Assembly (NCBI GenBank): GCA_002293375.1 | Contig: DBDA01000021.1 | Coordinates: forward strand, 26,305-90,304 | Source: Odoribacter sp. UBA944 | GTDB lineage: Bacteria; Bacteroidota; Bacteroidia; Bacteroidales; Marinifilaceae | DNA length: 64,000 nucleotides | Reading direction: 5' to 3' | Shown: positions 22,517-64,000 of the stretch, in pieces | Numbering within the stretch: position 1 is the first letter of the stretch | Layout of the letters: every line of letters begins with the position of its first letter | Notes under the pieces: generated by a model | Databases searched by the model: none | What the model was told of the DNA's origin: nothing | The model's input: only the letters and a program-made list of their open reading frames with translations | Program-made: the position numbers and the translations under genes

Positions 22517-23497
22517 ATGATGAAAAAGATTTTAACCATTGGCTTGTTGTTGTTGGGGGGTATCTGCACAGCGCAAAATGAGTTGTTTTCCCGGCAATAT
22601 TTTTTGAATAATTATTTGATGAACCCGGCTGTGGGGGGGATCAATGATTATATGGATCTGCGGGCGTCGTATAGCCGGCAATGGACGGCGATTGAGCACT
22701 CTCCTACATCCATGTTGTTGACTTTTAATGCGAACCTGGCCAAGGAGAAGGACCAGGTGTTGCGCTATTCGCCTTTTGAGAAACGGTATGCGGTGAGCAA
22801 GGGCGGCCTGGACCATTATGACCGCCGGATTAAGCACGGTGTCGGGGCGAAAGTTGTTTACGATAAGATCAACGGGTTTACGTATACGGATGCAACGGTG
22901 AGTTATGCCGCTCATATTCCGTTGACCGGGGCGTGGACGTTTTCCGCGGGGGTAGGGGGTGGTTTGTCGCTGTCGGCGATGGATCTTACCGGCCGGTATT
23001 TGGGGGAGGACTTGTCCGATCCGTTGCTGAACAACGGGAAGCGGAATGAGATGGTGCCGCTGGTGGAGGCGGGGGTTTGGCTTTACTCTACCGGGCCGTA
23101 TGTTGGCGCTTCTTTGACCCGTTATATGGAGGATCCGTACGATGAGGACCAGAAGGCGCGGTACATGAATATTTATGCGACGGCCGGTTGGCAGTTGCAG
23201 GCTTCCGAGCAGTTTGTGATCGTTCCTTCCGTGATGTACAAGCATGACGGTTATTCCGGGCACAATATCAATGTGAATGCGATGCTTTGGTTTACGGATA
23301 TTGCCTGGGCGGGTGTTTCGCTGCGCAATTTGGAGCATCCTTCGGTGCATGTCGGGGTGCTTTGGCGGAATACGCTGGAGTTGAATTATACGTATGACAT
23401 TAATAAGAGCGAATGGGGCGGCTCGCACGAGATCGGTATTGCTTACCGCATCTGGAACAAGGCCGATGATTGTAAGAATAAATGGTATTTTAAATAA
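22517..23497 (+). CDS. PorP/SprF-family type IX secretion system outer-membrane protein
   Basis: The track ORF is 22490..23497. The likely start is 'MMKKILTIGLLLLGG'. Signal peptide, then 'FSRQYFLNNYLMNPAVGG' (the PorP/SprF N-terminal signature). Beta-barrel-like alternating pattern and C-terminal 'GGSHEIGIAYRIW'. Confidence 0.85.
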   Translation: MMKKILTIGLLLLGGICTAQNELFSRQYFLNNYLMNPAVGGINDYMDLRASYSRQWTAIEHSPTSMLLTFNANLAKEKDQVLRYSPFEKRYAVSKGGLDHYDRRIKHGVGAKVVYDKINGFTYTDATVSYAAHIPLTGAWTFSAGVGGGLSLSAMDLTGRYLGEDLSDPLLNNGKRNEMVPLVEAGVWLYSTGPYVGASLTRYMEDPYDEDQKARYMNIYATAGWQLQASEQFVIVPSVMYKHDGYSGHNINVNAMLWFTDIAWAGVSLRNLEHPSVHVGVLWRNTLELNYTYDINKSEWGGSHEIGIAYRIWNKADDCKNKWYFK

Positions 23498-23505
23498 GCA
23501 GGGGG

Positions 23506-24726
23506 ATGGTACGAGCAGGTTTTCGGATCGGGTTGCCGGGCCTTTTGTTGGCTGTGTGGCTGGGGTTTTGTTTTCCGGCTTTTTCACAGGTGTATTATGT
23601 ATCCGTGAATGGCAATGATGGTAATAACGGCCAGAGTAAGGAGATGCCTTTTAAGACCATTTACAAAGCGCTGGCACAGCCCGGAGTGACGGAGGTGCTG
23701 GTTGCCGTAGGGGTTTATCCTGTTTCGGGGAAGATGGGGCAGCCGGGGGAGTTGGTGGTGCCTACGGGCGTCACGGTAAGGGGCGGTTACCTGGTTGTTG
23801 ACGGGACGATGACAGATACCCAGACGGACCATCCGGAAAGTATTGAAAACCAGACTATTTTACAAGGGGACTCCTCCTGCCGGATCGCGGTAGTGGGGGG
23901 TATTTTGGAGAACGTAACGGTTGCGGGGGGGCGCACCAAGGGGCAGAACGGAGGCGGCGTCTATGTGGAGCCCGACGGGGTTGTGCGGAATTGCATTGTT
24001 CGCAACAATTCGGCGACCGGTGGGAAGGTGAAGGTGGGTGATCTGTTTATGGAAAATTCGGCGGGTTTTTACTTTTTAAGCATGCAAAATTTCCAGATAG
24101 AGTTAAAGGAGCAGTTGGTGGGGGTTGTATTTTGGGTGAATCCGAACGACAATGTTCCGGACGAGGAGAAGGGAAAAGTGATTGCCTTTGCAACACAGAG
24201 TGCTAAATTTGCGGACAAGAACCCGGAAGAATACCCATTTTCAACCCCTTCTCCGCTGTATTATCCGACTTCCCGACTCGCTATGAGGGATCTGGATGGT
24301 GAACGAAATACGATTGATCTGCTTACTTACGATCCGACTATATTCCCGTTGACGAAGTCGTGTCGTGACTACAGAAGCGGTGAGGCGGACGCTGGCCGGT
24401 GGTATATGCCTGCTTGTGGAGAAGTTATGCAAATGTACGCAGAGTGGCTTGCGGTCAACAACACGTTTAAAATGGTGTGGGACAAAATGACACCGGAGGA
24501 GAGGATGCCCTGTTTTAATTTTCCGACGCGTGCTCTTGCTAATCGACCTTGGGAGGTCGCCGCCTATTGGTACGGCACATCCTTGTACACTTCCACGTTA
24601 TTTAGTGACCAAGGTATTTGGGTATATCAGAGTCCCCGTACAGTGGGTGTTCTGTTTAAAGAACAGACCGGAAGAAGTTTGTGGAATAGTGCCGGAGTAA
24701 TGACATATCCGATCCGAAAATTTTAA
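23506..24726 (+). CDS. secreted protein, small paralogue 1 of 4 (long form): beta-helix start fragment plus DUF1566/Lcl-C-like module
   Basis: 406 aa with a signal peptide '...CFPAFSQ'. 'YYVSVNGNDGNNGQSKEMPFKTIYKAL...VGVYPV' is a pectate-lyase-type beta-helix opening. 'GGGVYVEPDGVVRNCIVRNN' is a helix rung. 'VGVVFWVNPND' and 'GRWYMPACGEVMQMY' resemble the DUF1566 'WYLPSxxEL' core. Confidence 0.7.
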   Translation: MVRAGFRIGLPGLLLAVWLGFCFPAFSQVYYVSVNGNDGNNGQSKEMPFKTIYKALAQPGVTEVLVAVGVYPVSGKMGQPGELVVPTGVTVRGGYLVVDGTMTDTQTDHPESIENQTILQGDSSCRIAVVGGILENVTVAGGRTKGQNGGGVYVEPDGVVRNCIVRNNSATGGKVKVGDLFMENSAGFYFLSMQNFQIELKEQLVGVVFWVNPNDNVPDEEKGKVIAFATQSAKFADKNPEEYPFSTPSPLYYPTSRLAMRDLDGERNTIDLLTYDPTIFPLTKSCRDYRSGEADAGRWYMPACGEVMQMYAEWLAVNNTFKMVWDKMTPEERMPCFNFPTRALANRPWEVAAYWYGTSLYTSTLFSDQGIWVYQSPRTVGVLFKEQTGRSLWNSAGVMTYPIRKF

Positions 24727-24730
24727 TACG

Positions 24731-25654
24731 ATGAGAGCGGTAGTGATCAGTATATTGTTGTTTGCTTGTCTGACGGAATCTCGGGGACAGGGGATCGGAG
24801 GAGGGGTTTATTTGGAGGATAACGCCCTCTGTATCGGCTCTGTGGTCCGGAACAATCAGGCCCTGGATGGATTCGGGGTTGCGGGAGCTGCCGGGCACCT
24901 GATCAATTCGACGGTTGTGCAGAACGAGGTGCTCCCTGTGGACACGGTTGATTTCCAACCGGGCGATATCTATTGCGGAGACGGAAAGATACGGGATACG
25001 GCGGCGTACAGAAAACGGGACACCATGGATGCCATTGGCATTGTTTACTGGTGCCGCTTTGATTCGGATGTTCCTTACCCCCGGGGGGCTGTTGTGTCGT
25101 TGGAGGAGTTTCAGGGCCAGTGGGGGGCAGATATATATGTAGGGCAAGATCCGGAGATAGGTTATTCGACAAGAGGGTTAGATTATTCAATGGTGATGGT
25201 TATGGATACGGCCTGTTATACCATTACCCGGCATATTTACGAAGCGGCCAAAGCGTGGGGTGGAGGGGCAGAGTCGTACGCCGCTTACACCTGTTACCGG
25301 TATCATCATCCGGCCGAACAATCGACTCTGGAGCATCCGGATAGCAGGGAGGTGCAGTGGTGTTTGCCGACCTTCCTGTATTTTGTACGCATTTGGGCCG
25401 CCCTTCCGGAGGTGGAAGCGACCCTCTCTTTTTTGCAGGGGATGCGGGAATACGGGGGAGCGCAGTTGTTTTTGGCGGGAAAGGATTCCAGTAAGCCGTG
25501 TTGGTATTGGACTGCAAATGATGGAATGGGGCCACAAGGAAGGAATAGCGTGTTTCTCTTTGGTATATTTGGCGGCGTGCAGGCGGATTTTACACAGACT
25601 CTTGAATCCGATAAAAATCAACTTAATTACTACCGTCCGATTTTTATTTTTTGA
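24731..25654 (+). CDS. secreted or lipoprotein, small paralogue 2 of 4 (short form)
   Basis: 307 aa. Possible lipobox 'LLFAC'. 'GGGVYLEDNALCIGSVVRNN', 'IGIVYWCRFDSD' and 'VQWCLPTFLYFVRIW' align by eye with paralogues 1, 3 and 4. Confidence 0.65.
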   Translation: MRAVVISILLFACLTESRGQGIGGGVYLEDNALCIGSVVRNNQALDGFGVAGAAGHLINSTVVQNEVLPVDTVDFQPGDIYCGDGKIRDTAAYRKRDTMDAIGIVYWCRFDSDVPYPRGAVVSLEEFQGQWGADIYVGQDPEIGYSTRGLDYSMVMVMDTACYTITRHIYEAAKAWGGGAESYAAYTCYRYHHPAEQSTLEHPDSREVQWCLPTFLYFVRIWAALPEVEATLSFLQGMREYGGAQLFLAGKDSSKPCWYWTANDGMGPQGRNSVFLFGIFGGVQADFTQTLESDKNQLNYYRPIFIF

Positions 25655-25672
25655 CGGAGACGGGTACGTTTT

Positions 25673-26785
25673 ATGACGAGAAAAGTGAACATAGTGCTTC
25701 TGCTGCTGTTTGCAGGTTGTTTCCTCCCTCTTTCGGGGGGGGCGCAGGTCCGGTATGTCTCCTCTCCTTCTCGGGGAAACGGGAACGGAGAGAGTTGGGA
25801 AAATGCCTCAAGCAACATTGGAGAGATGCTTGCCCAGGGGAGTGAGGTGCGGGTGGCTTTGGGAACCTATGTGCTAAATGAAGAGTTGTTTGTTCCGGCG
25901 GGGAAACGGTTGACAGGGGGGTGGTTTGACGGCGAGCGGGTGGAGAGTGGAACAGAGAACACGGTCCTGGAAGCCCGGGGCGAACACCGGGTGGCAACAG
26001 TGGCCGGCTTGCTGGAAGGGGTGACGGTCACGAAGGGGTTGGCTGTGCGGGAGGATGGAGGCGGGTTGTTGGTCGAATCTACCGGGGAGGTGCGCAATTG
26101 CATTGTCCGGAACAACCGTTCGGCCCGTTATTATCCGCAGGTGGGGGATTATTTGGACAAAGACGGCAACCTGATACCGCAGGCGGGGTTAACCCCGTCC
26201 AATATGCCCGATGTGCGGGCCGTTGTTTTTTGGGTCAATCCGGATACGCTGGCGTCTAAAGGGAATAGAGGCTGGGCTGTAGCGGTGCCGGACGGGCCAG
26301 ACGGGGAGTTGTACAGTGGTCCGATGGATTTTGTTACCACTTGGGCTGAGACGGACGGTATATTGACCGATCATGCGTGTGCCACCCTGCGCGAAGCGTT
26401 GGCGGATACGGCCGGATGGGCGAATACGCAACGTATTGTGGCGAATTCCGACCCGGAAACGACGAGTGTGGCGCAAGCCTGTTTGGATTACGGGCGGGCA
26501 GGCGAAGAGATCCGGTGGTATTTGCCGGCGTTGGGACAGTTGCGTCATTTGGTCAGTGAGCTGTTGCCTGTGTATGCGTCTTATGCGCGCCTGATCCAGA
26601 ATGATGCGTATCAGAGTTTAATCATGTATAAGCCTTCTTACAGTTCAACCGAAGTAGGAGACAATGCTGTATGGAGTATACAATTTGATAGTGACTATTA
26701 CAATGAGAGTGGATACAACGGAGTAAATAAAACACGTAGAACTATCCCTAGTAATTTTCAATTAATACCGATAACCTCTTTTTGA
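25673..26785 (+). CDS. secreted or lipoprotein, small paralogue 3 of 4 (long form)
   Basis: 370 aa. Possible lipobox 'LFAGC'. 'VRYVSSPSRGNGNGESWENASSNIGEML...ALGTYVL', 'GGGLLVESTGEVRNCIVRNN', 'RAVVFWVNPDT', 'DTAGWANTQRIV' and 'IRWYLPALGQLRHLV'. Confidence 0.7.
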   Translation: MTRKVNIVLLLLFAGCFLPLSGGAQVRYVSSPSRGNGNGESWENASSNIGEMLAQGSEVRVALGTYVLNEELFVPAGKRLTGGWFDGERVESGTENTVLEARGEHRVATVAGLLEGVTVTKGLAVREDGGGLLVESTGEVRNCIVRNNRSARYYPQVGDYLDKDGNLIPQAGLTPSNMPDVRAVVFWVNPDTLASKGNRGWAVAVPDGPDGELYSGPMDFVTTWAETDGILTDHACATLREALADTAGWANTQRIVANSDPETTSVAQACLDYGRAGEEIRWYLPALGQLRHLVSELLPVYASYARLIQNDAYQSLIMYKPSYSSTEVGDNAVWSIQFDSDYYNESGYNGVNKTRRTIPSNFQLIPITSF

Positions 26786-26788
26786 GAG

Positions 26789-27610
26789 ATGAAGGGTGTG
26801 ATCTATACATGCATGGTGCTGTTTGCCGCCGTAAACGGGTGGGCTCAAACCGGGGGGGGGATCTATGTAAGGTCCGGCGGGAAGGTTGTCGGTACGGTTG
26901 TGCACGGGAATCTGGCGGAAGACGGGTACGGGCTTGCCGGAGGGGATGCGGAGGTGATCAATTCGACCGTTTGCACGAACGGGCCGATGGGCAACATCAT
27001 GGACGGCATACAACCCGGAGACATTTATTGCGCGGACGACACCATCCGTTCCCGGGCCGATTACGAGAAGAGAGCGGAAAAAGATGCCATCGGGGTGGTG
27101 TTTTGGGTAAACAGCAACTATTATGCCGCCTACCCGCGCGGGTATGTGGTGGCGTTGGAACAGTCCCTGCAACAGTGGACGGCAGGTATCCCCCGGTATG
27201 CAAACGCCCCCCTGAGCGATACGGCCTGTTACCAAAAGACACAGGAGCTGGCGGCGGCCGGCAATGAAGCGGCGATGTATTGCGCCGGATATGCCGCAGG
27301 CGGAGAGGTTGCAGGGAGATGGTGTATGCCGGCCGGGAGGCAGTTGTCGTTGCTGTATACGAATCAGGCGATTGTCAGCGAAACGTTGGATTTTCTCTCT
27401 AAGCCTGAGGAAGGGGCTGTTACAGGAAGTATAGCGGGCCTGGAGGAGACGTTGTATTGGAGTGTGAGCATTCGGGATGCGATGTATGTCTGGATGCAGG
27501 AGTTTCGGGCGCCGGAGGATATGGAGACGATATATTCAGGATCTTTTATCCGCCTTGATCCGAGTGCGGACCCTGCAGCTTATGCCGTACGTCCGATTTT
27601 TGTTTATTGA
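26789..27610 (+). CDS. secreted protein, small paralogue 4 of 4 (short form)
   Basis: 273 aa with a signal peptide '...VNGWAQ'. 'TGGGIYVRSGGKVVGTVVHGN', 'IGVVFWVNSNY' and 'GRWCMPAGRQLSLLY'. Confidence 0.7.
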   Translation: MKGVIYTCMVLFAAVNGWAQTGGGIYVRSGGKVVGTVVHGNLAEDGYGLAGGDAEVINSTVCTNGPMGNIMDGIQPGDIYCADDTIRSRADYEKRAEKDAIGVVFWVNSNYYAAYPRGYVVALEQSLQQWTAGIPRYANAPLSDTACYQKTQELAAAGNEAAMYCAGYAAGGEVAGRWCMPAGRQLSLLYTNQAIVSETLDFLSKPEEGAVTGSIAGLEETLYWSVSIRDAMYVWMQEFRAPEDMETIYSGSFIRLDPSADPAAYAVRPIFVY

Positions 27611-27625
27611 TTAAGCGTTTTGGCC

Positions 27626-30600
27626 ATGATAAAAAGAGTACATTGGGTGATGTTGTTGCTGTTGCTGGCGTGGGGAGCGCAAGCGCAGGAGGAAGGAGCT
27701 GCCGTTAAGCTGGGAACCGGAGCGAAGGTGAAAAATACGATTATCTGGGGAAACAAAGGCATTCAGTTGAATCCGGAAGTTACTCCGGAAACTTCTCATA
27801 TTTTTGCACCGGGGGTGGCATCTCCCCTTTTCCTGGATTCGCTGAACGGAGATTTCCGTTTGAGAAAGGGGTCGCCCCTGATCGATTCTGCCGATGTGGA
27901 TACCGATGCCGGGATGGGCCTTTATTTTGATGAAAACGCCCTTGATTTATGGGGAAATCCCCGCCTGAGCGGTACGAAATTCGATATCGGGGCGCACGAA
28001 TACCGGCTTTATAAGATTAGGTTCATCAAGGCACCCGAGGTCGTTATTGAGCAGGTGGCGGTGGATGGGCATGCCAGTGACTCCAATGGAGTGCATCTGG
28101 GGGAGACCTATAAATTCAGGCCCGTGTACGACGGTATAACGGGAATAGAGACGGACCTGGTTATTGTGCGGGACCTTACTTCGAATGAACTGATACCGGA
28201 TGAGGACGGGTATTATTATATCAGGGACGTTCAAACAGATAAAGAGGTCGAGATCATTGTGACGCCTCCTATTTTTGTCCGGGCCATGAAGAGTGCGAAC
28301 GGAATAATAGCGGTGACCAGAGAGGATAACACTACTGTCTCGACGCTTGTTAAGGATACGGTTATGGTGGTGGAGGAGAACGAGGAGGTGCGTTTGGATA
28401 CGACGGCGGACGAGGGGTACTACTGTTACGATGTGTATGTGGCAGCAGATGCAACCGGGCCTTGGTCATCCATTAAAAGCAAGGTCGGTGCAGGAAAATC
28501 TTATGCCGTTACGGGGGATGTTTGGTTTAGAGCGGAGTTCCGGCCCCGGTCCATCTCTATTGAATTGGAGGTAAACGACAGAAGTCGCGGAACGATCACT
28601 GTGACCGACAATGATTCTCCTCCCAATACTTACACGTTGGATGCCGGGAATACCGGATCGGGGAGTTTTACCTATGCGCCCGACAGGAGTTTTTCCGTAA
28701 CAGTCGCCCCGGAAACCGGCTATGAGTTGTCCTCGTTGACGGTATACGACGCGGACGGGAGTTCAAATGCCGAAGTCATCACCGCCGCCAAAACAACGAA
28801 TATGAGGTTGAACGGGTTGGTGATCAAAGCCGTTTTTGTACCGCTTACATATACGGTAACCTGGGATCCGCTCTATGCGACGCTTGTTGTTACACCGGGA
28901 ACAATGGAAGTGAACCCGTCCGGCGGGTTTATGATCGAAGAGGTAGAATACAATACCACCCTAACCGTTACTGCAACACCAGAGGAGGGGTATAACGTTA
29001 CCGGACTGACGGCGAACGGATTGACTACGGGTGTCTCTGCGACCGGAACTCCTTATCAGTGGAGCTATGTTGTGAAGGGCAATACCGAATTGGATGTGAC
29101 AACCGACTTGCAAAAGCAGACGGTAACCATTACTTCCAATACGCCTTTGGTCTTAGCGAATACGTGGTCGACGGCCCCTGTTTTGACGGGCGCCGGGGGC
29201 GATGAAATAGCGTATGGGAGTACGTTGGAGATCACGGTGTCTCCGGCAACCGGCTATGAGTGCATCCGTGCGGTGGTGAACGGGGCGGCGCCTCAGGCGG
29301 TGACCGGAAATAAACTCACGCTGCCGGCAATTACTTCGGCCCAGACGGTGGAATTGCAGTTTACCCGCATCCCATACGAAGTAACCTATATCAATGCGAC
29401 CCCCACCATGGGGAGCCTGACGGTGAGTAAACAGGAGCCTGACGCCAGCGCCTGGACGGCTTTTGTGAGCAGTCCGGGCAGTGCGGCGTACGGGGATAAG
29501 ATCAAGGCGGAAGTTTCTCCGAATACCGGTTATAAGCTTAAATCCCTGACGCTGACCCCTGACGGGGAGGGCCCTGTGGATTATACGTCGGCAGGAACCT
29601 TTGCAGTGGACCTGGAGAAGGACCTCGCTATTGCGGCGGAGTTTGAGCCGATCCTGTATACTGTTACGTTGAGGAAGGTATATGATCCTGCGTATGCAGG
29701 GCCGGAAGTGACAGGTACGGCCCCGACTGAGGGGAAGGTGGAGCTGAAGGTGGGGGGAACTACCCGGTTGACGGTGGATTATTCGGATGCGGACCATACC
29801 GGGACGGTCCAGTTGCCTTACGGAACGGTGGTGCAGGTGGTCCCGACGACTAATGTGGACTATGTTACCGACAAAATAGAGGCGGACGGGACAGACATTA
29901 CAACTCTCCGGCAATTTACGGTGACGGGGGATGCGGAGGCCGATGTATGGATTGTATACCACAAGACCGATTTTGCGGTAACCTGGGAGACGGTTTACAC
30001 CGGTTTTACCAGTACGATCGATGTACAAAAATCAGGTGGGGGCACTGTTCTTAACGGCAGCAGTTATCCGACCGGTACTGCTTTGGAGGTGATTGTGGAC
30101 CAGCAGGCGGGGGAATTTTGTACGGGGGTTTTTGCCAACGGGGTCGATATTACCGGAACAGATCCAGTGGCGAATCCTCCCACGGCAAGTATTAGCGGGG
30201 AGGCGATCCACTTTACCGCCGAGTTTGTTAAAATGTGTCGTGTTAAAATTACACCTCCGACGGGGGGCACCATTACTGTGAAGGACGATAAGGGTACCGT
30301 TTATAACGACGGTGACCCGGTTCCGGCCGGTACGACGCTTAAGGCGACCCTGGTGACTACGCTTCCCGGTTATTATTGCACCGGGTTGACCGCCGAGGGA
30401 AATTCGTTGTATGCGTGGAGCGGAACCTCCACGACCTCTCCGCCCACGACCACCGGGGAGCAAACGTATACGATCCCTGTGAACCATGCAGGCGGTGATA
30501 TTTTGTTTACAGGGACCGCGGCAGAATACTACTGTGTCAGGTTTACCACACCGATTAACGGAACGCTGGCGGTTGAAGCCGACGGGACTGCCTTGTCTGC

Positions 30601-35824: not shown

Positions 35825-35868
35825 CGGGAGGCATGAGTCAGTGAGTTATAATTTAAAATCAGCATGTG

Positions 35869-42931: not shown

Positions 42932-42937
42932 TGTGTA

Positions 42938-47013: not shown

Positions 47014-47045
47014 TTTGGGATTGCGATTAATTCTATTTAATTTTG
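47014..47045 (+). promoter_or_regulatory. candidate Bacteroidota sigma-A promoter (-33 TTTG / -7 TAATTTTG) for the D-E-F-giant unit
   Basis: TTTG at 47014-47017 and TAATTTTG (TAnnTTTG) at 47038-47045 are separated by 20 bp. They sit at the 3' end of a 472-nt strongly AT-rich gap, about 46 nt upstream of the ATG at 47091. Confidence 0.45.
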
Positions 47046-47090
47046 GTGGTAAGATTGAGGAGTATGTGTATCGATAGTGGAAAGAGACAA

Positions 47091-53600: not shown

Positions 53601-54331
53601 GGTATCTGTATAACTATCAAGCTGTGGCCGGGCAGGTTTACTCGGATTTAACGGGGAGTGCAAAATTTCAGGGAATTTGCCCGCCGGGGTGGCATGTACC
53701 CAGTAATCCGGAGTGGTTAGACCTTCTGACAGCTATTGGTCAGAACCCCAATACGCGAAACAATGCATTGAAATTGCAAAGCCCGTTAAATGACTGGGGG
53801 TGGAACAGTTCTACTGCTGCTGCCATGACCGACGAAGCCAAGATCGGAACCAACGAAAGCGGTTTTAGCGCTTTGCCGGCCGGAGGCCGTTTTTTTGCAA
53901 GCAACACCGGTTATAATCCGAGGATGTGGACAGCTCGCAACGGTTTTGGTGATTTGCATTCGAGGGGGTGGTGGTGGACCTCTTCCGTAGCACTTTCCAC
54001 TTGGGGTGGAAATAGAACCAATGACAGGAATGTTGCGATGATACCCTATCATGTTACATTAAATTTTCATGAAGAGACAAAGCTGGGTGGGGGAGCGATA
54101 AGCACCGCGCCTTCGAATATGACTTATTTGGGCAACACATTGTACACGAATACCCTGGCAGGGGGGAGCACTTACGGATATTTGACCAATAGTGTATTGA
54201 ATGCATACTCCTATGCCTATTTGTATACCGGTGAAAACCAAGCAGGTTGGAATTCGCTGTATAATACGGCTGCGGGAAATAACATTTGGCAACAGTTTTA
54301 TTTTTCGGTTCGTTGCATTAGAAATTATTGA
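50666..54331 (+). CDS. GldJ-fold scaffold paralogue E, FISUMP C-terminal head
   Basis: 1221 aa. 'NNIRVDGDVRV...LQWDNSWRDAFNYDAAYVFVKYKV', 'GIEMVYIPRGGFRAGD', 'WQVSFTQPVVLRSIAIES...EWKLEAS', 'FFAMKYEITQEQY', 'GLRPLTELEYEKM' and 'MTFRLGR'. Head: 'YRTIEIGGRCWFADNL...CKKYGYLYNY...CPPGWHVPSNPEWLDL...FYFSVRCIRNY'. Confidence 0.8.
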   Translation: MKRFAILCLFAAFAGNICRANNIRVDGDVRVTGNDVSGNIATVNIKLQWDNSWRDAFNYDAAYVFVKYKVDGEGELWHHATLMSDGHTVTPGYETLLSNTTGETDKNQGIFVYRSGKGVGSSVVELKLRWNITGNPNKVLNTDLFISNRVFITAMGIEMVYIPRGGFRAGDTRSVKKFEYKDVTFPAKYDLLTTDLVREYYSSKSRELVSDPNPPAFAINGINDVNPEKSNAWVGRTDTPEGVDYDDFWQVSFTQPVVLRSIAIESIAGGVPAEWKLEASTTSGWRAIYPVNYQDDIYALGSEWATGSHRTYPCTRTLRIPDDPENEQGYSTYRITIKGIPAGGTVIKNVSMGVANVLDSVDNSVVIDGPQSRMHNRYGLYAEDGDTWSGLTDVNYPNGYGAFFAMKYEITQEQYVTFLNKLTAAQQRNRTIGAVKLESLLEGQYVFGDDKNNPTARNGIKLASIGVNDAPYVFANDLNPLNEYAQDGDGQTIACNFLNGGDMLAYADWVGLRPLTELEYEKMARRPFPEHAIRGEYAWNQAVDATKATGFFGTTVGKKTERPASGNVNMENGQEGPLRVGSFAASSGGQVAAGASFWGLMELSGNLGELYYNANTVGRGFRGMQNIHHGNGQLAADGNTDVLTDYWPWAEQAFSLRGGSYQDVKERVRISDRERNLNVFGSISEVTGMKSPTMTFRLGRTAPVLTLISELVLENGQSTAMNAIDSVCSGVDYIIKGTIPKEITGSFRIAWFMSSDKGTTWDLMEGEEQPSLNIKNLRNINLTQDLFMNFRFRRRIFSDRYDVVTTNDVEINVINNSLIVSNNRDTLDVYDRSKGFRVETPQAATFAWTWLRSGVNNNRPITPEYPAIVAGKVQRHFFAYTDFEDGAMFLGTNKILLEVTVMKKCPLQDTLYVFVEESPSPQDNGETFVCGNILQFEEERYRTIEIGGRCWFADNLRRTPSTGSYKCYDESLENCKKYGYLYNYQAVAGQVYSDLTGSAKFQGICPPGWHVPSNPEWLDLLTAIGQNPNTRNNALKLQSPLNDWGWNSSTAAAMTDEAKIGTNESGFSALPAGGRFFASNTGYNPRMWTARNGFGDLHSRGWWWTSSVALSTWGGNRTNDRNVAMIPYHVTLNFHEETKLGGGAISTAPSNMTYLGNTLYTNTLAGGSTYGYLTNSVLNAYSYAYLYTGENQAGWNSLYNTAAGNNIWQQFYFSVRCIRNY

Positions 54332-57300: not shown

Positions 57301-58054
57301 CAACCTGAACCGTACTGCTACAAACGATATCGGTGCTTCGTACTGCTACGGCGGGGACACAGGCGATTGCAACGCGTTGTACGGCCGGCTCTACAACTAC
57401 AGAGCTGCTACTCAAAATGCTGCTGCAGCCCTGTTAACAGGAACCATTAAAGGCATCTGCCCTACGGGGTGGCACCTGCCTTCCAATGCGGAGTGGTTGG
57501 ATTTGCTGCGTGCGATCGGGGTAAATCAAAATGCGGCCGGAAATGCGGTAGCCCTCCAAAGCCCGCTGAATTCCTGGACAAACACCACCGATGAGAACCG
57601 GATCGGTACCAACAGTTCCCGTTTCAGTGCGCAGCCCTCCGGAGGACAATTTTGGTACTATACGGGTAGTGTCTCTGCGAGCTACGGACCATACGAATGG
57701 GAATACCGCACCGGTTATGCCGATCAGGGAAATCGAGCATGGTGGTGGACCTCGACAGTCGGATCACTTAATTGGCATCCCCATGATACAAGAAGTTATG
57801 CCGCGATGCCTTACCACGTTGTATTGAATAATCAGAGCGGAACACCGGTGGCGACAGAACTCTATGCCCGAACGATTTATACAAGTACTTCAGCGACCGC
57901 AGCAGCAGGGAGTTATTCGGTATTGACGGGACGGCATCATTATTATCTTGCCAGGAATTATACTAATGGAGCTTGGAATTTAACTTATAATATGGAGGCT
58001 ACGGATGCTATGTGGAGCAACTTTTATTTTGCAGTCCGTTGCGTTAAAAATTAA
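54362..58054 (+). CDS. GldJ-fold scaffold paralogue F, FISUMP C-terminal head
   Basis: 1230 aa and, by eye, the closest relative of E. 'NNIRIEGDVRV...VKWENSWRDAFNYDAAYIFLKYKV', 'AIEMVYIPRGGFRAGD', 'WQVEFNNPVRIRNFAIES', 'FFTMKYEVSQEQY', 'GLRPLTELEYEKM' and 'LTFRLGY'. Head: 'YRTVDIGGMCWFADNL...YGRLYNY...CPTGWHLPSNAEWLDL...FYFAVRCVKN'. Confidence 0.8.
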   Translation: MAVIRYLVTVIAAVLLTAPGVWGNNIRIEGDVRVAREDVVENIATVRITVKWENSWRDAFNYDAAYIFLKYKVDGTGEVWHHLPLMNSGHSVKPAGDFGYVLANSNGSGGTQHRNEGIFIYRSGIGRGDATAQLELKWNITVNPDRVLNEDLFTNNSVFVSAMAIEMVYIPRGGFRAGDTQSDKKFEYGDVTLPASYDILGTSAVKRCFSSRETATNPPSFAINRMNDVTEDETNAWVGRVDAPVEEVDYFDYWQVEFNNPVRIRNFAIESIAGRVPDEWQLQGLSSGGTWQTLYPGSNENVYAPGTDWAVGSHQTYPCTRTLAIPNYESNYSTYRIRIKSMPAGVSPVIKNIAMTTENYLSFVDNSVVISEPTTKLDARNGLFARDEDTWSGVTDANYPNGYAAFFTMKYEVSQEQYVAFLNKLTAAQQRSRTIGGDLEHLAEGDYVFGSSRTEPNYRNGIKISRVGASGAPYVFANDLNSADGAYSQESDGQTIACNFLNAGDMLAYADWAGLRPLTELEYEKMARRPFLDTVVRGEYPWNRNTDYLSAPAIVSDGTVGTKDESVTAGNINAARLENGQAQLPGPVRVGAFAKSAEQSSQTAAGAGFWGVMELGGNLSEIYYNANTEGRAFRGIRDIYHGNGKLASNGQADVSSALWVLSENAFAVRGGNFGDLAARTRTSDRFWNKGVFANMNQVNGLRDSTLTFRLGYTAPVQTLASPLQLENGQTTDLALAVDSICSGSDYLIRGTLPSAITGIYRIAWFMSSDKGATWVLMKNEESPSLHLENLRNINSKEDSFIEYRYRRRIYSNGPDDTTNDVRLLVINTSLNIDRLVDTVDVYDYSQGIRVQAPQAATFSWTWIRESSGNKAITPQYPAIKANKIQRHYFKYADFFDGSQYTGDQKILLKVTVLGQCSSYDTVRLYVRERPVETNAVNNDAAKTANADFRCGDILVDNEENVTVFKKYRTVDIGGMCWFADNLNRTATNDIGASYCYGGDTGDCNALYGRLYNYRAATQNAAAALLTGTIKGICPTGWHLPSNAEWLDLLRAIGVNQNAAGNAVALQSPLNSWTNTTDENRIGTNSSRFSAQPSGGQFWYYTGSVSASYGPYEWEYRTGYADQGNRAWWWTSTVGSLNWHPHDTRSYAAMPYHVVLNNQSGTPVATELYARTIYTSTSATAAAGSYSVLTGRHHYYLARNYTNGAWNLTYNMEATDAMWSNFYFAVRCVKN

Positions 58055-58091: not shown

Positions 58092-61000
58092 ATGAAGGCG
58101 TTTCTATATAGCATACTTTGTTTACTGTTCTGCTTGCAGACCGGCATGCTCCGGGCGCAGGAGGAGGGCGATCCGACGCCTGAACCGGGCATCTCCAAGG
58201 TTCAGTTGGTACAATCTCCTGCCGAACGGTCGGTTTTTGCTTTGGGAGAAACGCTCATTTTTACATTGGCGATCACGGAGGAGGGAGATAATACCAAAAC
58301 GTATTCGTGGAGGAAGGTCAAGGCAGACGGCAATGACGAAGAGATCAGTAATGAGCGGGAGTTGGAGATGATCCTCGGTTCACTGGCTGACTCCGGCCGG
58401 TATTACTGTATAGTGACGGATGTAACCAACTCTTCGGCGGAGCACTATTCGGATACCGCGGCGATTTTTGTGGAGGGCATTGTTTCGGTGCGTTTGAAAA
58501 ATCCTCCGGCCGGCGCTTTGGCCATCGGAGGGGCGTTTACACTTGAATTAGATATTGAAGAGGGAGGGGATCATACAAAATCGTATTCGTGGAGAAGAGT
58601 AAACGATGAAGGGGAAGATGAGTTTTTGGAAACTGATGGGGAGCGTTTGATTTTCCCGACACTGTCGCTTGCCGATACGGGACGTTACTATTGTGTTGTA
58701 ACCGACCGGACAGATTCGTATAAAACGTACCGTTCGGATACGGCGACGATCCGGGTGACGGGGATCGCTTCTATTCAGGTACAGTGTGATCCGGACCGGT
58801 CGGATTTTGTGGTGGGGGAATCGGTGACTTTTACCTTGGGGATTACCGAAGGAGGGAATAATGCCAAGACCTATTCCTGGAAGAAGGTGGGAGATGACAC
58901 CCCCATCGGAAACGAAGCGACTCTAACACTCTCTAATCTGTCGTTGAGCCATACGGGCAGCTACTATTGTATTGTAACCGACCAAACCAATCCGGAGAAT
59001 CCTTACCATTCCGATCAGCGAGCGATCCTTGTGGAAGGGATCGGGTCCGTACAGGTGGAACAGCTTGCCGGACGAACCACTTTTGTGTTGGGAGAATCGA
59101 TCGCTTTTACGGTGAAGGTCACGCAGGTGGGGGTAGCAGATCTTAGCTATGCGTGGAAAAAAGCGGGCGATGAAGGATCGGTGTTAAGTACGGAGGCGAA
59201 TTTGGTGTTGAATGACGTCTCGCTTGCCGATGCGGGGCGCTACTATTGTGAAGTTACGGATGATACCCATCCGTCGGCTTCCGGAAATCCCTATAAATCG
59301 AATGAGTATACCATAAATGTGCTGACTACTTCCGCGAGGGTATTTGGTGTTAGCCGGTTGTGCGTGGGAGATTCGGTCCGTTTGGCCCTTGCATTGAGCA
59401 ACGAAGGAGAGTACTCTTACCGGTGGTTTAAAGTGGGAGGCTCCTCAACGCCGCTGACAACAGCTACCTGGTTAATTGAAGACCTGACCCCGGCCCACTC
59501 CGGAAAATATTATTGTTTGGTGCAGGATGTGGCCAACGGTTTTGAAATAACCTCCGATACGTTGGATGTATTGGTATCGGAATATCCGGTTGTCGGTTTG
59601 ACTGTGAACGGGCTCGCTCCGGAAGATCACACTGCGACGTTTTGTTACGATTCGGAAATTACCTTGACTGTTTTCAATCAGGCTTCGGGACAGCCGGAGG
59701 CCATTGCTTTCTGGACAGGTAACTCCCTGCAAGGCGATCTGGAAGATACGGAGGTTAACTTTCGGCTGAAATATACATCGCTTTACCGGGCGGTGATCAC
59801 CAACAACGGGTGCGTGCGGGAAGATTCCGTACGGATCGTGATGAAACAGCCGCAGGTGTTGTTACCGGAAAACCGTTACGCAATTGCCGGGGAGACCGTG
59901 ACGTTGGCTTCGTTGGCGCCGGAAAATTCGGATTACCGTTTTTATTGGAACAACGGAGATCAATTGAATGTATTTTCCGGCGATGCCTATACCTTTCCGG
60001 TCGAAGAGGGAACGACACCTGTTTCTGTGCGGGTGCAGACCGCTTCCCTGCCGGTGTGTACAAATTACGATACCTGTTATGTGACCGGTTTGCCGGCGAT
60101 GAATTACACGACTTCTGTCAATGACGGGTATGTGGTGAGCCGCAGCCCGCTCCGGATCATTCAGAACGATACGACACTTTGCGCCCGTATGGACCTGCAA
60201 TTGGAGGTCGCTTATACCGGATACGACGGATATACCTACGAGTGGCTGAAAGCGGGGGCGGAAGAGGTGCTTGCCACGGGCAGGATACTGACCTTGAAAT
60301 CTTTGGAGGAGACCGTTCGGACAGACTATTTCTGCCGGGCGTACGACCTGGAAAAGGGAGCGTATGTTTATTCGGATACGGTGACGGTAGTAGTGAAGTA
60401 CCGTCCGGTAGCCAGTATTACGGGGGCTGATGATGTGACACCGCTGTGCGGCGGTTATCCGTTGACTTTGACCGGGGGAAGCGGATTGGCAAGTGATCCT
60501 CCGGCAATAACGTATCATTGGCAGGGGTCGGGCATGATGAGTGGTACGAACAGTAAAGTGCTGAATGTAAAGGTAAGCACCAACGGGACCTACTCTTTGA
60601 TCGTGAGTGCAAATGGCTGTGCCGATACGGCAGAATTGCACATTCCGACCGTTGTGCATTACGTGGATATTCCTGCACAGTTGATCTTGCCGTTGCCCAC
60701 CGATGGAGTTCATTTTACGGCGGAAAAACCCGAAGACGGTTATTTGACCTGGTTTATACAGGGAGTAGGCGGAGAGCGAAAGGTGCTGGAAACGGGAATG
60801 ACGGCTGGGGCGAGTTTAGATATTCGTGGGGGTGATAAATTGGTGATCGCCCAGATGCGCAAAGATGGTTGTGATTTCAGGGATACTTGCCGCGTGCTGA
60901 TCCGGGAGTTTGCAGAACCGGTAGGCAATGAGAATGATTATGACGACGGTTTTGCCATTTCCTATCCGGATTTGCGGGTGACCAACCCGACTCCCAGAGT

Positions 61001-64000
61001 GTGTCGCGGGCAGGATGTGACCCTCTCTGTGTACAATGAGGGGTACGACAACTACAAATACAAGTGGTACAAAGAGGGAATAGCGGAAGCATTACCCGGC
61101 AGCGAAGGGAGTTCTTATACCATTTACAGGGCAGAAGCGGGAGCCGGAGGAGATGGCGGAAGGTATTATTGCGTTGCAACGGACCCGGCCGGCCGGGAGT
61201 TGGTTTCGAATATGGCAACCCTGACGGTGCAAGACGGGCCATTGGCGGAGATCACCTTCCTGAATGACGAAACAATAAACCGGTTGGAAAGCCCGATACC
61301 GGTGTGTTACGGTTCAACGATCACCATCGGTACGGGATTGAGTTATGTTACGTCCGGAGGAGGCAGCCATTCAAATCCCGAAGTAGCGGACAGGTTGCTG
61401 TGGACGGGCGAAGGGATCGTTTCCGGACAGGGTACCGACAAAATTGTGGTAAGGGTGGGGAATACCGCCCGCTTTACGTTGACGGCTTCGAAAAATGCCG
61501 GGTGTTCGTCGCAGGATACCATTACGTTCCGGGTGGTTAAGCCGGAGGTATCACTTGATTCCAAAGTGTTGGTACGGGAAGAGGACGCTGAAATTACTTT
61601 CAAAGCTTCCAGCCTCCAGTCTGTTTTTGCCTGGTCTAAGAACGATGAGCCGACACCGGACGAAAGCGCTACTGCCACCATGTTGTTTGATGCGGATGGG
61701 TATGTTGTGGTAACGGTGAGTGAAGAGGGTTGTTTGGCCAGCGATACGGCTAAGGTATTTATCCGGAAGAGAGCTTCTTTTGCGGGGGGAACGAACGATG
61801 GTTTCTCACTATCCCGCCCGGCGCTGGTGATCCCGGGTACGCTGAAGCAGATCATTGCCTGCCCGGATGAGCAGATAACTCTCCGTACACAGCATGCGGA
61901 GTATGCCAATTATAAGTACGAGTGGTGGAGGGAAGCGAACGGCTACGATCCGGAACTTGTCCATGCGGGAGCCGTGTATACCTTTACAATGGATCAGAAT
62001 GGCTTTCTGGCGGGCAGGTATTACTGTACGGTGATCGATCCTGATTTCGGGGAAGACGATCCGCGCCATTACCTTTATTCCGATACGTTGGAGATTATAC
62101 ACAGGGTCGGTCCTTTGGCACAGATCGCCTCGAACAAAACGGAGTTGTGTGCCGGAGAGTTGTTGGAATTGAATGCTACGGCTTCCGCCAGTGGAGTCGG
62201 GCAGGTCTCTTATACGTGGAGTGGAGAAGGGGTGACGGAGGAGAACCAGTCTTTGGGTATTTTGTCGATTTACCCGCAACAGAGTGGAGTTTATACGGTG
62301 GAGGTTCGTAATCAGAACTGTTCCGATACGGTCAGTGTGGCGATTACGGTGTCTCGTCCGCAGATAACGTTGCCCGCCCTGATCAAATTGCCGGCTCCGG
62401 TGTTCAATTACAATATGTCTGCTTTTCAACCGGAGGGTGCGGCGACTGTTACCTGGAGTTTTCGGAACGATGCAGGCCATACAAACCCCGGAAGTGTGAA
62501 CCTGTTGAATATAGATGGTGACGGTTGGATCATTGCAAGTTTACAGGATACCGAAAGCGGTTGTGCGGCATTAGATTCCTGCCGGGTATTTGTGAAAGAT
62601 ATTTACTCCTTCGGAGGCGGGGCGGATGATGGTTTCAGTGTGTTGGAGGTCAATACGCGTGTATGGATGGAACCCCGCCAGGAGGAGATAACGTTGTGTT
62701 TAGATCAGGAACTTGTGTTGAGGGCGGCGGTAAGCGGTGTGGGACGCTATACGTATAGTTGGCATCGCGTGGAGGATGATGTGGAAGGAAAGCCCGGAAA
62801 AGTACTGGGGACGGGGGAGCAATGGGTGATTGACTATGTTACAACTGCAGATGAAGGGAGTTATTATTGTGTTGTTACGGACCAGGAAGAGAATGATCCG
62901 GAAGGGGGAGGCAAAAAGCAATACAGGACAGAAAATATACGGTTGATCGTAACAGCCGGGCCGATCGCTCAGATTGCGCAGCGGCTGGGAGGTACCAACT
63001 GGAGCGCCTGTGTGGGAGAAACAATAGATTTGCTGGGAAGCCTGGCCCCGGAATCTCCTGTCCAGGGGGGGATTGGTGTGGTACAGTACACTTGGAGCGG
63101 AGATTATTTTGAAGAGTCCGAAACGCCGGAGATCATTTACGCCAGGCCTCAGAGGGACGGATTGTACATATTGACAATCAGCCACAGCGAAACAGGGTGT
63201 GCTGATACGGTACACGCGCGTTTTGTGATGCGTTCTCCCCAGGTGTCTTTGCCCAGCACCATCACCATGCTGAAGCCGGGGATGCTTCAATTGGAGGCGG
63301 AAGCGGACGAAGAGGGACGTTTCCAATGGTACAGGGATGTTTATCCGTCCAATATATTGAGTTATGTAAATCCGGCAAATCTGGATATAAAACAGGATGC
63401 AGCGGTGATCGTACGTTTTGACCAGGAAGGGTGTTATGGCTTTGATACCACACAGGTATTTGTCAGAATGGATGCCGCTTTCAGGGGGGGGGACGACGAT
63501 GGTTTCATGGCATCGGATATTCATCTGGTCGCCCAGGTAGGCAGAAAACGGCAAGAGGTGTGCCGGGGTGCCTTGATTGAAATACCGCTCCGGGTGGCGG
63601 AAGTTGGCAGGGTATTGCGTTACAATTGGTTTAAAGTCGGTGATTATACGGTGCTTGGCCGGGAGAAGAATTTGGTGTTGTCGGCCAATGAGGTTAGCGA
63701 TGGCGGGCAGTATTATTGTGTGGTGAGTGATCCTTCCATAGAGAATCTGGCAAAGGGGTCGGTGTGGTCGGATACCGCAACGGTTGTGGTTCTGAACGGG
63801 CCGCAGGCCAAAATTTCCGAACCGAACGAGATAAGATTGGCCAATATTTTCTGTAAGGGAGCCGAAGTGCTGATCAGCGCTCAGGCGACGGAGAGTCGCA
63901 AGACCAACAACACGGATGTCTATACATACGAGTGGTTTGGGGAAAACATCTCTTACGTTGCCCGTGATTATGAGATCAACGCCAAAATGGGGAACAGCGG
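58092..64000 (+). CDS. giant Ig-like repeat surface protein, N-terminal >=1969 codons (continues beyond the window end)
   Basis: Absent from the ORF track (no stop in the window). Manual translation from the ATG at 58092 gives 'MKAFLYSILCLLFCLQTGMLRAQEEG...' (signal peptide). The '(G)(R/S/K/Q)YYC.V.D' codons at 58405, 58685, 58960, 59240, 59508, 61160, 62015, 62865 and 63705 are all in this frame (start mod 3 = 0), and no competing frame-0 ORF is listed. Confidence 0.8.
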   Translation, partial: MKAFLYSILCLLFCLQTGMLRAQEEGDPTPEPGISKVQLVQSPAERSVFALGETLIFTLAITEEGDNTKTYSWRKVKADGNDEEISNERELEMILGSLADSGRYYCIVTDVTNSSAEHYSDTAAIFVEGIVSVRLKNPPAGALAIGGAFTLELDIEEGGDHTKSYSWRRVNDEGEDEFLETDGERLIFPTLSLADTGRYYCVVTDRTDSYKTYRSDTATIRVTGIASIQVQCDPDRSDFVVGESVTFTLGITEGGNNAKTYSWKKVGDDTPIGNEATLTLSNLSLSHTGSYYCIVTDQTNPENPYHSDQRAILVEGIGSVQVEQLAGRTTFVLGESIAFTVKVTQVGVADLSYAWKKAGDEGSVLSTEANLVLNDVSLADAGRYYCEVTDDTHPSASGNPYKSNEYTINVLTTSARVFGVSRLCVGDSVRLALALSNEGEYSYRWFKVGGSSTPLTTATWLIEDLTPAHSGKYYCLVQDVANGFEITSDTLDVLVSEYPVVGLTVNGLAPEDHTATFCYDSEITLTVFNQASGQPEAIAFWTGNSLQGDLEDTEVNFRLKYTSLYRAVITNNGCVREDSVRIVMKQPQVLLPENRYAIAGETVTLASLAPENSDYRFYWNNGDQLNVFSGDAYTFPVEEGTTPVSVRVQTASLPVCTNYDTCYVTGLPAMNYTTSVNDGYVVSRSPLRIIQNDTTLCARMDLQLEVAYTGYDGYTYEWLKAGAEEVLATGRILTLKSLEETVRTDYFCRAYDLEKGAYVYSDTVTVVVKYRPVASITGADDVTPLCGGYPLTLTGGSGLASDPPAITYHWQGSGMMSGTNSKVLNVKVSTNGTYSLIVSANGCADTAELHIPTVVHYVDIPAQLILPLPTDGVHFTAEKPEDGYLTWFIQGVGGERKVLETGMTAGASLDIRGGDKLVIAQMRKDGCDFRDTCRVLIREFAEPVGNENDYDDGFAISYPDLRVTNPTPRVCRGQDVTLSVYNEGYDNYKYKWYKEGIAEALPGSEGSSYTIYRAEAGAGGDGGRYYCVATDPAGRELVSNMATLTVQDGPLAEITFLNDETINRLESPIPVCYGSTITIGTGLSYVTSGGGSHSNPEVADRLLWTGEGIVSGQGTDKIVVRVGNTARFTLTASKNAGCSSQDTITFRVVKPEVSLDSKVLVREEDAEITFKASSLQSVFAWSKNDEPTPDESATATMLFDADGYVVVTVSEEGCLASDTAKVFIRKRASFAGGTNDGFSLSRPALVIPGTLKQIIACPDEQITLRTQHAEYANYKYEWWREANGYDPELVHAGAVYTFTMDQNGFLAGRYYCTVIDPDFGEDDPRHYLYSDTLEIIHRVGPLAQIASNKTELCAGELLELNATASASGVGQVSYTWSGEGVTEENQSLGILSIYPQQSGVYTVEVRNQNCSDTVSVAITVSRPQITLPALIKLPAPVFNYNMSAFQPEGAATVTWSFRNDAGHTNPGSVNLLNIDGDGWIIASLQDTESGCAALDSCRVFVKDIYSFGGGADDGFSVLEVNTRVWMEPRQEEITLCLDQELVLRAAVSGVGRYTYSWHRVEDDVEGKPGKVLGTGEQWVIDYVTTADEGSYYCVVTDQEENDPEGGGKKQYRTENIRLIVTAGPIAQIAQRLGGTNWSACVGETIDLLGSLAPESPVQGGIGVVQYTWSGDYFEESETPEIIYARPQRDGLYILTISHSETGCADTVHARFVMRSPQVSLPSTITMLKPGMLQLEAEADEEGRFQWYRDVYPSNILSYVNPANLDIKQDAAVIVRFDQEGCYGFDTTQVFVRMDAAFRGGDDDGFMASDIHLVAQVGRKRQEVCRGALIEIPLRVAEVGRVLRYNWFKVGDYTVLGREKNLVLSANEVSDGGQYYCVVSDPSIENLAKGSVWSDTATVVVLNGPQAKISEPNEIRLANIFCKGAEVLISAQATESRKTNNTDVYTYEWFGENISYVARDYEINAKMGNS

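Follow-up and report, generated by a model that had tools for sequence, protein, structure and literature searches.

A 13-gene array of secreted proteins in a termite-gut relative of Odoribacter: a PorP/SprF and type B cassette beside FGE-fold paralogues and a giant Ig-repeat gene

Gene content and domain organization of the array

The stretch of DNA considered here, called the window below, comprises 64,000 nt of contig DBDA01000021.1 of Odoribacter sp. UBA944, a termite-gut relative of Culturomica and Odoribacter, and identical contigs occur in ERZ922776 and SRR5322551. According to the map of open reading frames (ORFs) and their translations, 13 successive plus-strand genes (g1–g13) occupy 41.5 kb from position 22517 to the window end at 64000. 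The gaps between them, read from g1 to g13, are 8, 4, 18, 3, 9, 41, 64, 6, 472, 35, 30, and 37 nt; the 472-nt gap (46619-47090, between g9 and g10) is AT-rich, and the others span 3–64 nt. Minus-strand ORFs within the array are shadows of the long plus-strand frames. The N-terminus is signal-peptide-like in 13 of 13 translated products, none of these signal peptides has a canonical lipobox, and Pfam and NCBIfam matched none of the 13 proteins to a family of enzymes, transporters, regulators, or mobile elements. The picture drawn by a first-pass annotation of the window, that of an uninterrupted same-strand run forming a dense block of secreted, binding-type proteins, is therefore borne out. 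The genes are treated below as two groups, g1–g6 (module A) and g7–g13 (module B), and their coordinates are given in Table 1.

Module A opens with a PorP/SprF-family protein, as had been proposed. Full-length matches of g1 to PF11751 (144.2 bits, cut-off 22.3) and TIGR03519 (168.9 bits, cut-off 90.55) exceed the cut-offs, a relative in Culturomica sp. is named PorP/SprF, and the orthologues in loci L087 and L088 are 89 and 64% identical, respectively. The C-terminal tail of g1 (23440-23497) reads ...NKADDCKNKWYFK; it has a lone cysteine, C319, that is kept in all three orthologues (window, L087, and L088), and the Cys-X-Cys motif of SprF is not present in it. In SprF, the cysteines of this motif in the periplasmic C-tail are disulfide-bonded to GldK, and in Porphyromonas gingivalis PorG a single tail cysteine is disulfide-bonded to PorK (PMC12635249). 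By analogy, it is possible that the tail cysteine tethers g1 to the PorK/GldK ring. PorP-like proteins bind and anchor adjacent type B cargo, as in the cases of SprF-SprB and PorP-PG1035 (PMC9143113). A gene with a type B C-terminal sorting domain (CTD) for the T9SS (type IX secretion system), g6, lies 4.1 kb downstream of g1 in the same gene string, and likewise in L087 and L088; judged by profile matches and position, g1 and g6 make up a genuine pair of a PorP/SprF protein and type B CTD cargo.

The CTD of g6 (aa 2650-2731) is recognized by CHU_C (69.7 bits, cut-off 27) and TIGR04131 (58.9 bits, cut-off 35). The remainder of the protein has weak matches to Flg_new_2 (InlB-B-repeat) and choice-of-anchor-Q models, and no internal sequence repeats were detected in it, so that of the type B CTD repeat protein described earlier the CTD stands and the repeats do not. 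Neither g6 nor the 1,969 aa of g13 that lie inside the window matched SprB repeats (PF13573).

Between g1 and g6 lie four small secreted proteins, which are mutually paralogous by alignment. g2 and g4 begin like a DUF1565 beta-helix, and the C-terminal halves of all four carry the motif set W..PA..QL / YWSST / RPIF. Pfam DUF1566 (PF07603) gives no match in g2–g5 even at E<=10. Their profile matches the C-terminal region of PDB 4eps_A (E=3.6e-8), and an AF2 model of g5 (pLDDT 64, pTM 0.67, moderate confidence) has as its best, and only meaningful, Foldseek match the C-terminal domain of Legionella Lcl (8q4e_A; E=3.5e-3, probability 0.99, TM(target) 0.55). Because of the 4eps_A profile match and the 8q4e fold match, the earlier label of four "DUF1566-like" paralogues is reasonable at fold level; it finds no counterpart in a Pfam match. 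Homologues of g5 number only 6 among 5.8 billion proteins and always occur in a PorP cassette.

Module B starts with six paralogues, g7–g12, that share a body of ~940 aa followed by one of three kinds of C-terminal head, all matched by profiles in agreement with the first-pass annotation. The fibrinogen-like head of g7 is matched by NF040941 (45.9 bits, cut-off 30) and over ~40 residues by PF00147 Fibrinogen_C (22.0 bits, exactly at cut-off). The glycine-rich heads of g8 and g9 match PF12810 near full length (140.1 and 130.3 bits), and the FISUMP heads of g10, g11, and g12 match Fib_succ_major (PF09603; 90.8, 75.5, and 63.8 bits) and TIGR02145 (127, 95, and 88 bits). Identity between bodies is 30–37% across head types, 52% for g8/g9, and 59% for g11/g12; since it is higher within a head type, head type follows old subfamilies and not recent shuffling. 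Orthologues of g12 in Culturomica and Odoribacter are 54–58% identical.

The body was resolved into domains in a high-confidence AF2 model of g10 (pLDDT 85.7, pTM 0.77). In this model, an N-terminal beta-sandwich with an invariant W.NSWR...N.DA.Y motif (aa 23-138) precedes the first strands of an FGE-like domain (aa 158-210; IEMVYIPRG.F..GD), an inserted beta-sandwich with weak discoidin/F5-F8-C signals (aa 255-355), the FGE-like core (aa 405-700), two Ig-like domains (aa 728-920), and the head (aa 930-1179). A weak F5_F8_type_C match (16.9 bits) is found in the insert of g9. Top matches of the full g10 model in a Foldseek search against PDB are generic tandem-Ig proteins.

Direct matches of g7–g12 to FGE-sulfatase (PF03781) are borderline, 20–24 bits against a cut-off of 23.3 bits (for example, 22.7 bits in g7 and 22.4 bits in g8), and searches of PDB sequences with single paralogue sequences or their own profile gave nothing significant. 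A short-form subfamily (~520 aa) aligns to the body of the window paralogues with an hhalign E of 2e-123, and these relatives score 34–53 bits on PF03781. The short-form profile finds in PDB human FGE (2afy/1y1e, E=2e-8), EgtB (4e-5), and PorK at only 0.07. Membership of g7–g12 in the FGE superfamily is solid because of these short-form relatives, through transitive homology. No conserved cysteine or cysteine pair follows the RGGS(F/Y/W) motif in the paralogue and family alignments; the catalytic cysteine pair of FGE lies in the RGGS...C..C segment. With positions equated by sequence, these alignments would argue for a non-catalytic binding domain in the paralogues, like that of TvpA.

The last gene, g13, encodes the Ig-repeat protein that had been recorded as at least 1969 aa long. 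Its Ig_3, Ig_2, and Ig_7 matches confirm this assignment, the Ig_7 domains being of the "CHU_C-associated" kind, and on a longer identical contig (L089) the full-length product is 6,611 aa, with the C-terminus ~14 kb past the window end. Two side observations concern a relative, L070: the last ~60 residues of its giant protein (~9850-9987) contain a dockerin/EF-hand-like loop, DLNFDGKIDG, and the first giant gene has after it two paralogues of the family and another giant gene.

Table 1. Genes of the array and candidate promoter motifs in the 64-kb window
Feature	Position (nt)	Strand	Description	Remarks
g1	22517..23497	+	PorP/SprF-family outer-membrane protein, 326 aa	ATG at 22517; longest ORF from 22490
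g2	23506..24726	+	Small secreted protein, DUF1565-like beta-helix start and Lcl_C/DUF1566-like C-terminal domain	PF07602, 24.4 bits
g3	24731..25654	+	Small secreted paralogue, short form	Paralogue alignments; no Pfam match
g4	25673..26785	+	Small secreted paralogue, long form like g2	Paralogue alignments
g5	26789..27610	+	Small secreted paralogue, short form	AF2 model; C-terminal domain resembles Legionella Lcl C-terminal domain
g6	27620..35824	+	Secreted protein, 2,734 aa, predicted T9SS type B C-terminal sorting domain	CTD at nt 35567-35812
g7	35866..39246	+	Paralogue 1, 1,126 aa, body and fibrinogen-like YCDxxxxGGGW head	Head at ~nt 38674-39243
g8	39311..42931	+	Paralogue 2, 1,206 aa, body and ALK/LTK-type glycine-rich head	Head at nt 42197-42925
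g9	42938..46618	+	Paralogue 3, 1,226 aa, body and glycine-rich head	Head at nt 45827-46603
g10	47091..50630	+	Paralogue 4, 1,179 aa, body and FISUMP head	Head at nt 49923-50624
g11	50666..54331	+	Paralogue 5, 1,221 aa, body and FISUMP head	FGE-sulfatase, 22 bits
g12	54362..58054	+	Paralogue 6, 1,230 aa, body and FISUMP head	Head at nt 57269-58048; FGE-sulfatase, 24.3 bits
g13	58092..64000 and beyond	+	Giant Ig-repeat protein, first 1,969 aa in window	Ig_3 192, Ig_2 148, Ig_7 64 bits
Candidate Bacteroidota -7 promoter motif TAnnTTTG	22455..22462	+	~55 nt upstream of the g1 ATG	Motif match only
Candidate internal Bacteroidota promoter TTTG-N20-TAATTTTG	47014..47045	+	In the 472-nt gap	46 nt upstream of the g10 ATG

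Secretion signals, promoters, and genomic setting

CTDs were sought with PF18962, PF13585, TIGR04131, and TIGR04183, and none was found in g2–g5 or g7–g12 at E<=0.01 in Pfam and NCBIfam; the C-termini of g7–g12 are the lectin-like heads themselves. By these profiles, a T9SS link is demonstrable for g1 and g6 only.

The true gldJ of the genome lies 18 kb upstream of the array on the minus strand (2980-4491), immediately upstream of a Mur ligase gene (1605-2894, minus strand), and matches TIGR03524 with 462 bits and FGE-sulfatase with 142 bits. Its presence in the window confirms that the organism has a T9SS/gliding-type envelope, and its product was used as an internal control for the GldJ-likeness of the paralogues. 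The paralogue profile aligns to this GldJ with an hhalign probability of 1.2%, and the GldJ/GldK NCBIfam models TIGR03524, TIGR03525, and TIGR03530 have no match in g7–g12. At the level of sequence, g7–g12 resemble GldJ as members of the FGE superfold and no further. The earlier description of six GldJ-fold paralogues is thus to be kept for their number and superfamily and dropped for any closer relationship to GldJ. A precedent for the FGE fold as a structural ring, repurposed in GldJ/PorK, is provided by a work cited in PMC12635249.

Of the array's seven intergenic gaps, only those upstream of g1 and of g10 contain the motif TAnnTTTG. The g10 site is the sole match in the 64-kb window to the full consensus TTTG-N(17-21)-TAnnTTTG; since 0.92 such matches are expected per window on both strands, it is the position of the site that is suggestive. 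This motif pattern suggests two transcription units, g1–g9 and g10–g13. A scan for sigma-70 promoters and terminators gave no more than shuffled expectation and is uninformative, and an Rfam scan of the whole window gave no matches. An invertible promoter in the 472-nt gap or upstream of g1 was considered and rejected, only short AT-rich inverted-repeat pairs being present there. GC skew is strongly positive over the array block.

The left flank of the array is a DUF4301 gene (20387-22006, minus strand, 718 bits), which is kept in the window, L087, L088, L009, and L010 and is therefore a useful anchor for scoring presence or absence of the g1–g6 cassette. Further upstream lie a tricorn-like protease gene with PD40 repeats, Tricorn_C1, and Peptidase_S41 (6776-10012, plus strand) and, adjoining it, a ZnuA-type zinc-uptake gene (10039-10878, plus strand). 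Together with ETF/acyl-CoA dehydrogenase and POR genes, these form a housekeeping context, which places the array in the core chromosome.

Synteny and distribution of the family

Three independent assemblies (L001, L089, and L090) are 99.98–100% identical to the window over 13.6–19.6 kb, and the heads of the paralogues are 100% identical in all of them. The closest named relatives are Culturomica and Odoribacter, in which the paralogues are annotated merely as "FISUMP domain-containing protein". Culturomica massiliensis and several Odoribacteraceae contigs keep the order of paralogues with glycine-rich (GRD) heads, paralogues with FISUMP heads, and a 4,943–7,131-aa Ig protein. Head-type order and the giant gene are thus kept across genera at 40–58% protein identity.

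The two groups of genes have different distributions. L087 (Culturomica sp.) and L088 retain the complete six-gene cassette g1–g6 in the same position next to DUF4301, and in L088 the beginning of a g7-like gene comes after it. In L009 and L010, the paralogue array comes directly after the same DUF4301 gene, and PorP, small-protein, and type B CTD genes are missing. A scan of species representatives (185,579 genomes, at least 556 family stretches) left 76 loci, and in none of the 76 was a g1–g6 homologue, PorP-profile match, or g6-like CTD found within 10 kb of family members. The neighbourhood check proposed with the first-pass annotation, which looked for porP-like, type B CTD, and FGE paralogue genes together, accordingly speaks against a general association, as the cassette was seen only in L087 and L088. 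Since it is kept as a unit in these two loci and is missing in L009/L010 and the 76 loci, the array consists of two modules that can be separated and that stand side by side in this lineage.

The paralogue family itself is large. In an exhaustive HMMER search with clustering at 50% identity, it numbers 2,414 clusters, of which 1,050 reach E<=1e-30. Odoribacter genomes have 12–17 or more separate family loci each, mostly single genes with housekeeping neighbours (ABC transporter, EF-G, DNA polymerase III, and similar) that give no functional clue. The short form is represented in Chitinophagales, Sphingobacteriales, Paludibacter, and Ignavibacteriae, and also in metagenome-assembled genomes (MAGs) labelled Omnitrophota, Verrucomicrobiota, and Chloroflexi; the family thus extends to phyla without T9SS. 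Among loci L012–L086, 10 of the 12 informative tandem arrays have a same-strand giant ORF after them, to which L082 may be added with the ORF at 720 nt, whereas only 1 of 44 single copies has one. The array-then-giant loci include Chitinophaga, Sphingobacteriaceae, and Paludibacter, and the giant proteins are of unrelated types, Ig in Odoribacter, PATR/YDG in Chitinophaga, and unannotated in Paludibacter.

Some relatives are found in loci resembling diversity-generating retroelements (DGRs). FGE-sulfatase and Fib_succ_major/DUF1566 domains are recognized C-type-lectin target classes of DGRs (PMC5758913). In two uncultured Odoribacter MAGs (L030, 7038-11694; L031, 6894-11500), after a FISUMP-head member come a MutS_I-like ORF, bAvd, six additional copies, in frame, of the last ~65 codons of the gene (~196 nt, 71–86% identical), a reverse transcriptase (RT), and a giant Ig gene. 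The seven copies of the FISUMP end in L030 were rejected as a textbook set of template and variable repeats (TR/VR), as their differences are not adenine-specific; the locus resembles a cassette array joined to a DGR. VR/TR-like repeat pairs are also present at the end of the FGE domain in L072 and L085, near a reverse-transcriptase family. Because relatives lie in DGR-like loci and the domains are known DGR target classes, the FISUMP and FGE domains are marked as ligand-recognition surfaces. A DGR in the window itself was rejected: RT, Avd, and TR-like repeats were not found within it, its direct repeats reflect paralogy at 60–83% identity, and the heads are identical in the three assemblies.

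Function of the two modules and relation to known systems

Gene content, paralogy, homology, and synteny of the array are matters of observation, and on balance it is probable that they represent two adjacent modules of exported binding proteins, a PorP/type B cassette and an FGE-fold array with a giant Ig protein, and not one machine. Module A would be a conventional T9SS cargo cassette, in which the type B CTD of g6 directs its export via T9SS and the cognate PorP/SprF-like barrel g1 subsequently keeps it at the cell surface. The tail cysteine might link this barrel to the PorK/GldK ring, and g2–g5 may be accessory lectin-like partners. Module B would represent a conserved arrangement of a tandem array of non-catalytic FGE/C-type-lectin-fold proteins, then a giant repeat protein. 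Its most likely function is multi-specific recognition of ligands or glycans and adhesion, carried out jointly with the 6,611-aa Ig fibril. For module B, we infer from the domains and their order that the proteins are on the surface, associate physically with the giant protein, and act in binding.

Several observations weigh against this interpretation. As g7–g12 have no T9SS CTD, lipobox, or other signal for crossing the outer membrane, module B could be periplasmic. The precomputed Pfam list for the full 6,611-aa g13 product shows no CTD, and no known T9SS sorting domain was found in the giant Ig protein of L070 (at least 3,317 aa), the only giant C-terminus visible in a relative. The promoter-motif pattern would put g7–g9 in the same transcript as g1–g6; this, with the g7-like gene after the cassette in L088, makes some functional coupling of the modules possible. 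As for the models, that of g5 is of moderate confidence only (pLDDT 64), and the Foldseek result for the full g10 model is Ig-dominated and does not resolve the FGE-like and N-terminal domains.

The first-pass annotation had read all 13 genes as one self-contained T9SS-linked apparatus, with g6 and g13 as SprB-like filaments and g7–g12 as GldJ-like scaffolds or track elements. Tight spacing on a single strand, the PorP/type B CTD pair at the head of the locus, the g7-like gene of L088, the absence of the promoter motif between g6 and g9, and the repurposed FGE fold of GldJ and PorK (work cited in PMC12635249) all agree with such an apparatus. It is nevertheless quite improbable, since the cassette is missing from L009/L010 despite the same flank and array, and from the 76 species-level loci, and the family is also represented in MAGs labelled Omnitrophota, Chloroflexi, and Verrucomicrobiota. 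The g1/g6 pair survives as its T9SS-linked part, and g7–g12 are without CTD. The filament and scaffold roles, and with them a GldJ-based gliding apparatus, are unsupported in view of the lack of a SprB-repeat match in g6 or the window part of g13, and of the hhalign result, the lack of a GldJ/GldK NCBIfam match or lipoprotein signal, and the family profile scoring E=0.07 against PorK and 2e-8 against FGE. By analogy with PorK/GldJ rings and tracks, the paralogues could instead be periplasmic or outer-membrane-associated factors for assembly, export, or anchoring of the giant protein. This would suit the array-then-giant synteny in distant Bacteroidota despite differing giant types, the presence of a Sec signal peptide only, with no signal for crossing the outer membrane, and the structural-ring precedent (PMC12635249). 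We consider it unlikely: the modules present (discoidin-like, Ig, FISUMP, fibrinogen-like, and glycine-rich) are of kinds typically used for extracellular binding, the diversification by DGRs of FISUMP heads or FGE domains in relatives indicates ligand-recognition surfaces, and most family members in Odoribacter genomes are lone genes without a giant beside them (43 of 44).

Two further alternatives concern the origin of the array. Chance build-up of independent secreted-protein genes, by family expansion in a permissive region and with no functional coupling, is made conceivable by the huge expansion of the family in Odoribacter, mostly as single genes beside housekeeping neighbours, and by the separability of modules A and B. 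There is little probability in it given the conserved head-type order and giant gene at 40–58% identity across genera, the giant found after 10–11 of 12 arrays versus 1 of 44 singles, and the six-gene cassette intact in L087 and L088. Least probable of all is a hypervariable receptor bank, in which the heads of g10–g12 or the C-terminal loops of their FGE domains would be variable regions of a DGR encoded elsewhere. The L030/L031 homologue with its FISUMP C-terminus near bAvd, a MutS_I-like ORF, and RT, the VR/TR-like pairs of L072 and L085, and C-terminal segments rich in N, Y, S, and T in g10–g12 would fit such a bank; the window has neither RT nor Avd nor a TR-like repeat, its direct repeats are only 60–83% identical, all heads are unchanged in L001, L089, and L090, and the copy differences in L030 are not adenine-specific.

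A more far-reaching proposal for module B is that the FGE-fold array and giant protein, present here and in Odoribacteraceae, Chitinophaga, Sphingobacteriaceae, and Paludibacter, constitute a widespread Bacteroidota surface-fibril system, in which paralogue bodies dock on or cap the fibril, heads are exchangeable and in some lineages diversified by DGRs, and export proceeds without known T9SS sorting domains. This is tentative and rather doubtful.

Odoribacter and Culturomica are common gut commensals, and to our knowledge hardly any work has addressed the biology of their surface. Should module B prove to be a functional unit, it would define a large unnamed family (~2,400 clusters at 50% identity, with many copies per Odoribacter genome) and a recurring partnership of FGE-fold proteins with giant surface proteins. 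The FISUMP, fibrinogen-like, and ALK-type glycine-rich heads would then be candidate determinants of host, particle, and partner-cell recognition, and the array would be a non-DGR counterpart of TvpA-like variable proteins, whose scaffold is diversified by paralogy and head swapping, not by retrohoming. It would also raise the question of how large Sec-dependent proteins with no known T9SS signal are exported in a T9SS organism. Most worth pursuing are the lack of an export signal and the rule, seen across Bacteroidota, that arrays precede a giant gene. Module A adds another PorP-like carrier paired with type B cargo, unusual in its four Lcl_C-like accessory genes.

A literature search found no publication describing the architecture of the array, in line with the earlier statement that no described system of this composition was known to its author; the components belong to known kinds, and the arrangement is undescribed. 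Closest to g1 and g6 are SprF-SprB of Flavobacterium johnsoniae (sprCDBF) and PorP-PG1035 of P. gingivalis, in which a PorP-like carrier is likewise clustered with type B CTD cargo. The conserved cysteine in the periplasmic C-tail is also common to g1, SprF, and PorG (PMC12635249). However, the array has four Lcl_C-like genes between g1 and g6 and not sprC/sprD, g1 has one cysteine where SprF has Cys-X-Cys, and g6 is without SprB repeats; the array offers no evidence of motility. The C-terminal halves of g2–g5 resemble the Legionella Lcl C-terminal domain/DUF1566 and 4eps_A (a 510-residue "hypothetical protein") by motif, profile, and fold, and differ from them in their N-terminal beta-helix-like caps (DUF1565 in g2) and very narrow family.

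The body of g7–g12 is homologous to a short-form family with VR/TR-like members, which brings it close to the TvpA-type DGR targets (class "b"; Wu et al., 2017, PMC5758913), and for both a binding module is presumed rather than an enzyme. In contrast to TvpA, the window copies have no DGR, their FGE-like domain is internal and split by the discoidin-like insert, and they add Ig domains, a separate head, and an unnamed conserved N-terminal beta-sandwich. The GldJ and GldK (PorK) lipoproteins share with g7–g12 the FGE-sulfatase superfold and the phylum, but g7–g12 have no lipobox, are 2–3 times larger, and carry extracellular-type modules. Finally, g13 may be compared with the giant Ig-rich fibrils SprB and GhpA, the grappling hook of Aureispira (PDB 9fly). 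It differs from them in that no CTD is listed for it and SprB repeats were not matched in its window part, and it is, like them, a Sec-dependent Ig-repeat giant in a T9SS-bearing organism; GhpA (9fly) is also among the Foldseek matches to the Ig domains of the g10 model.

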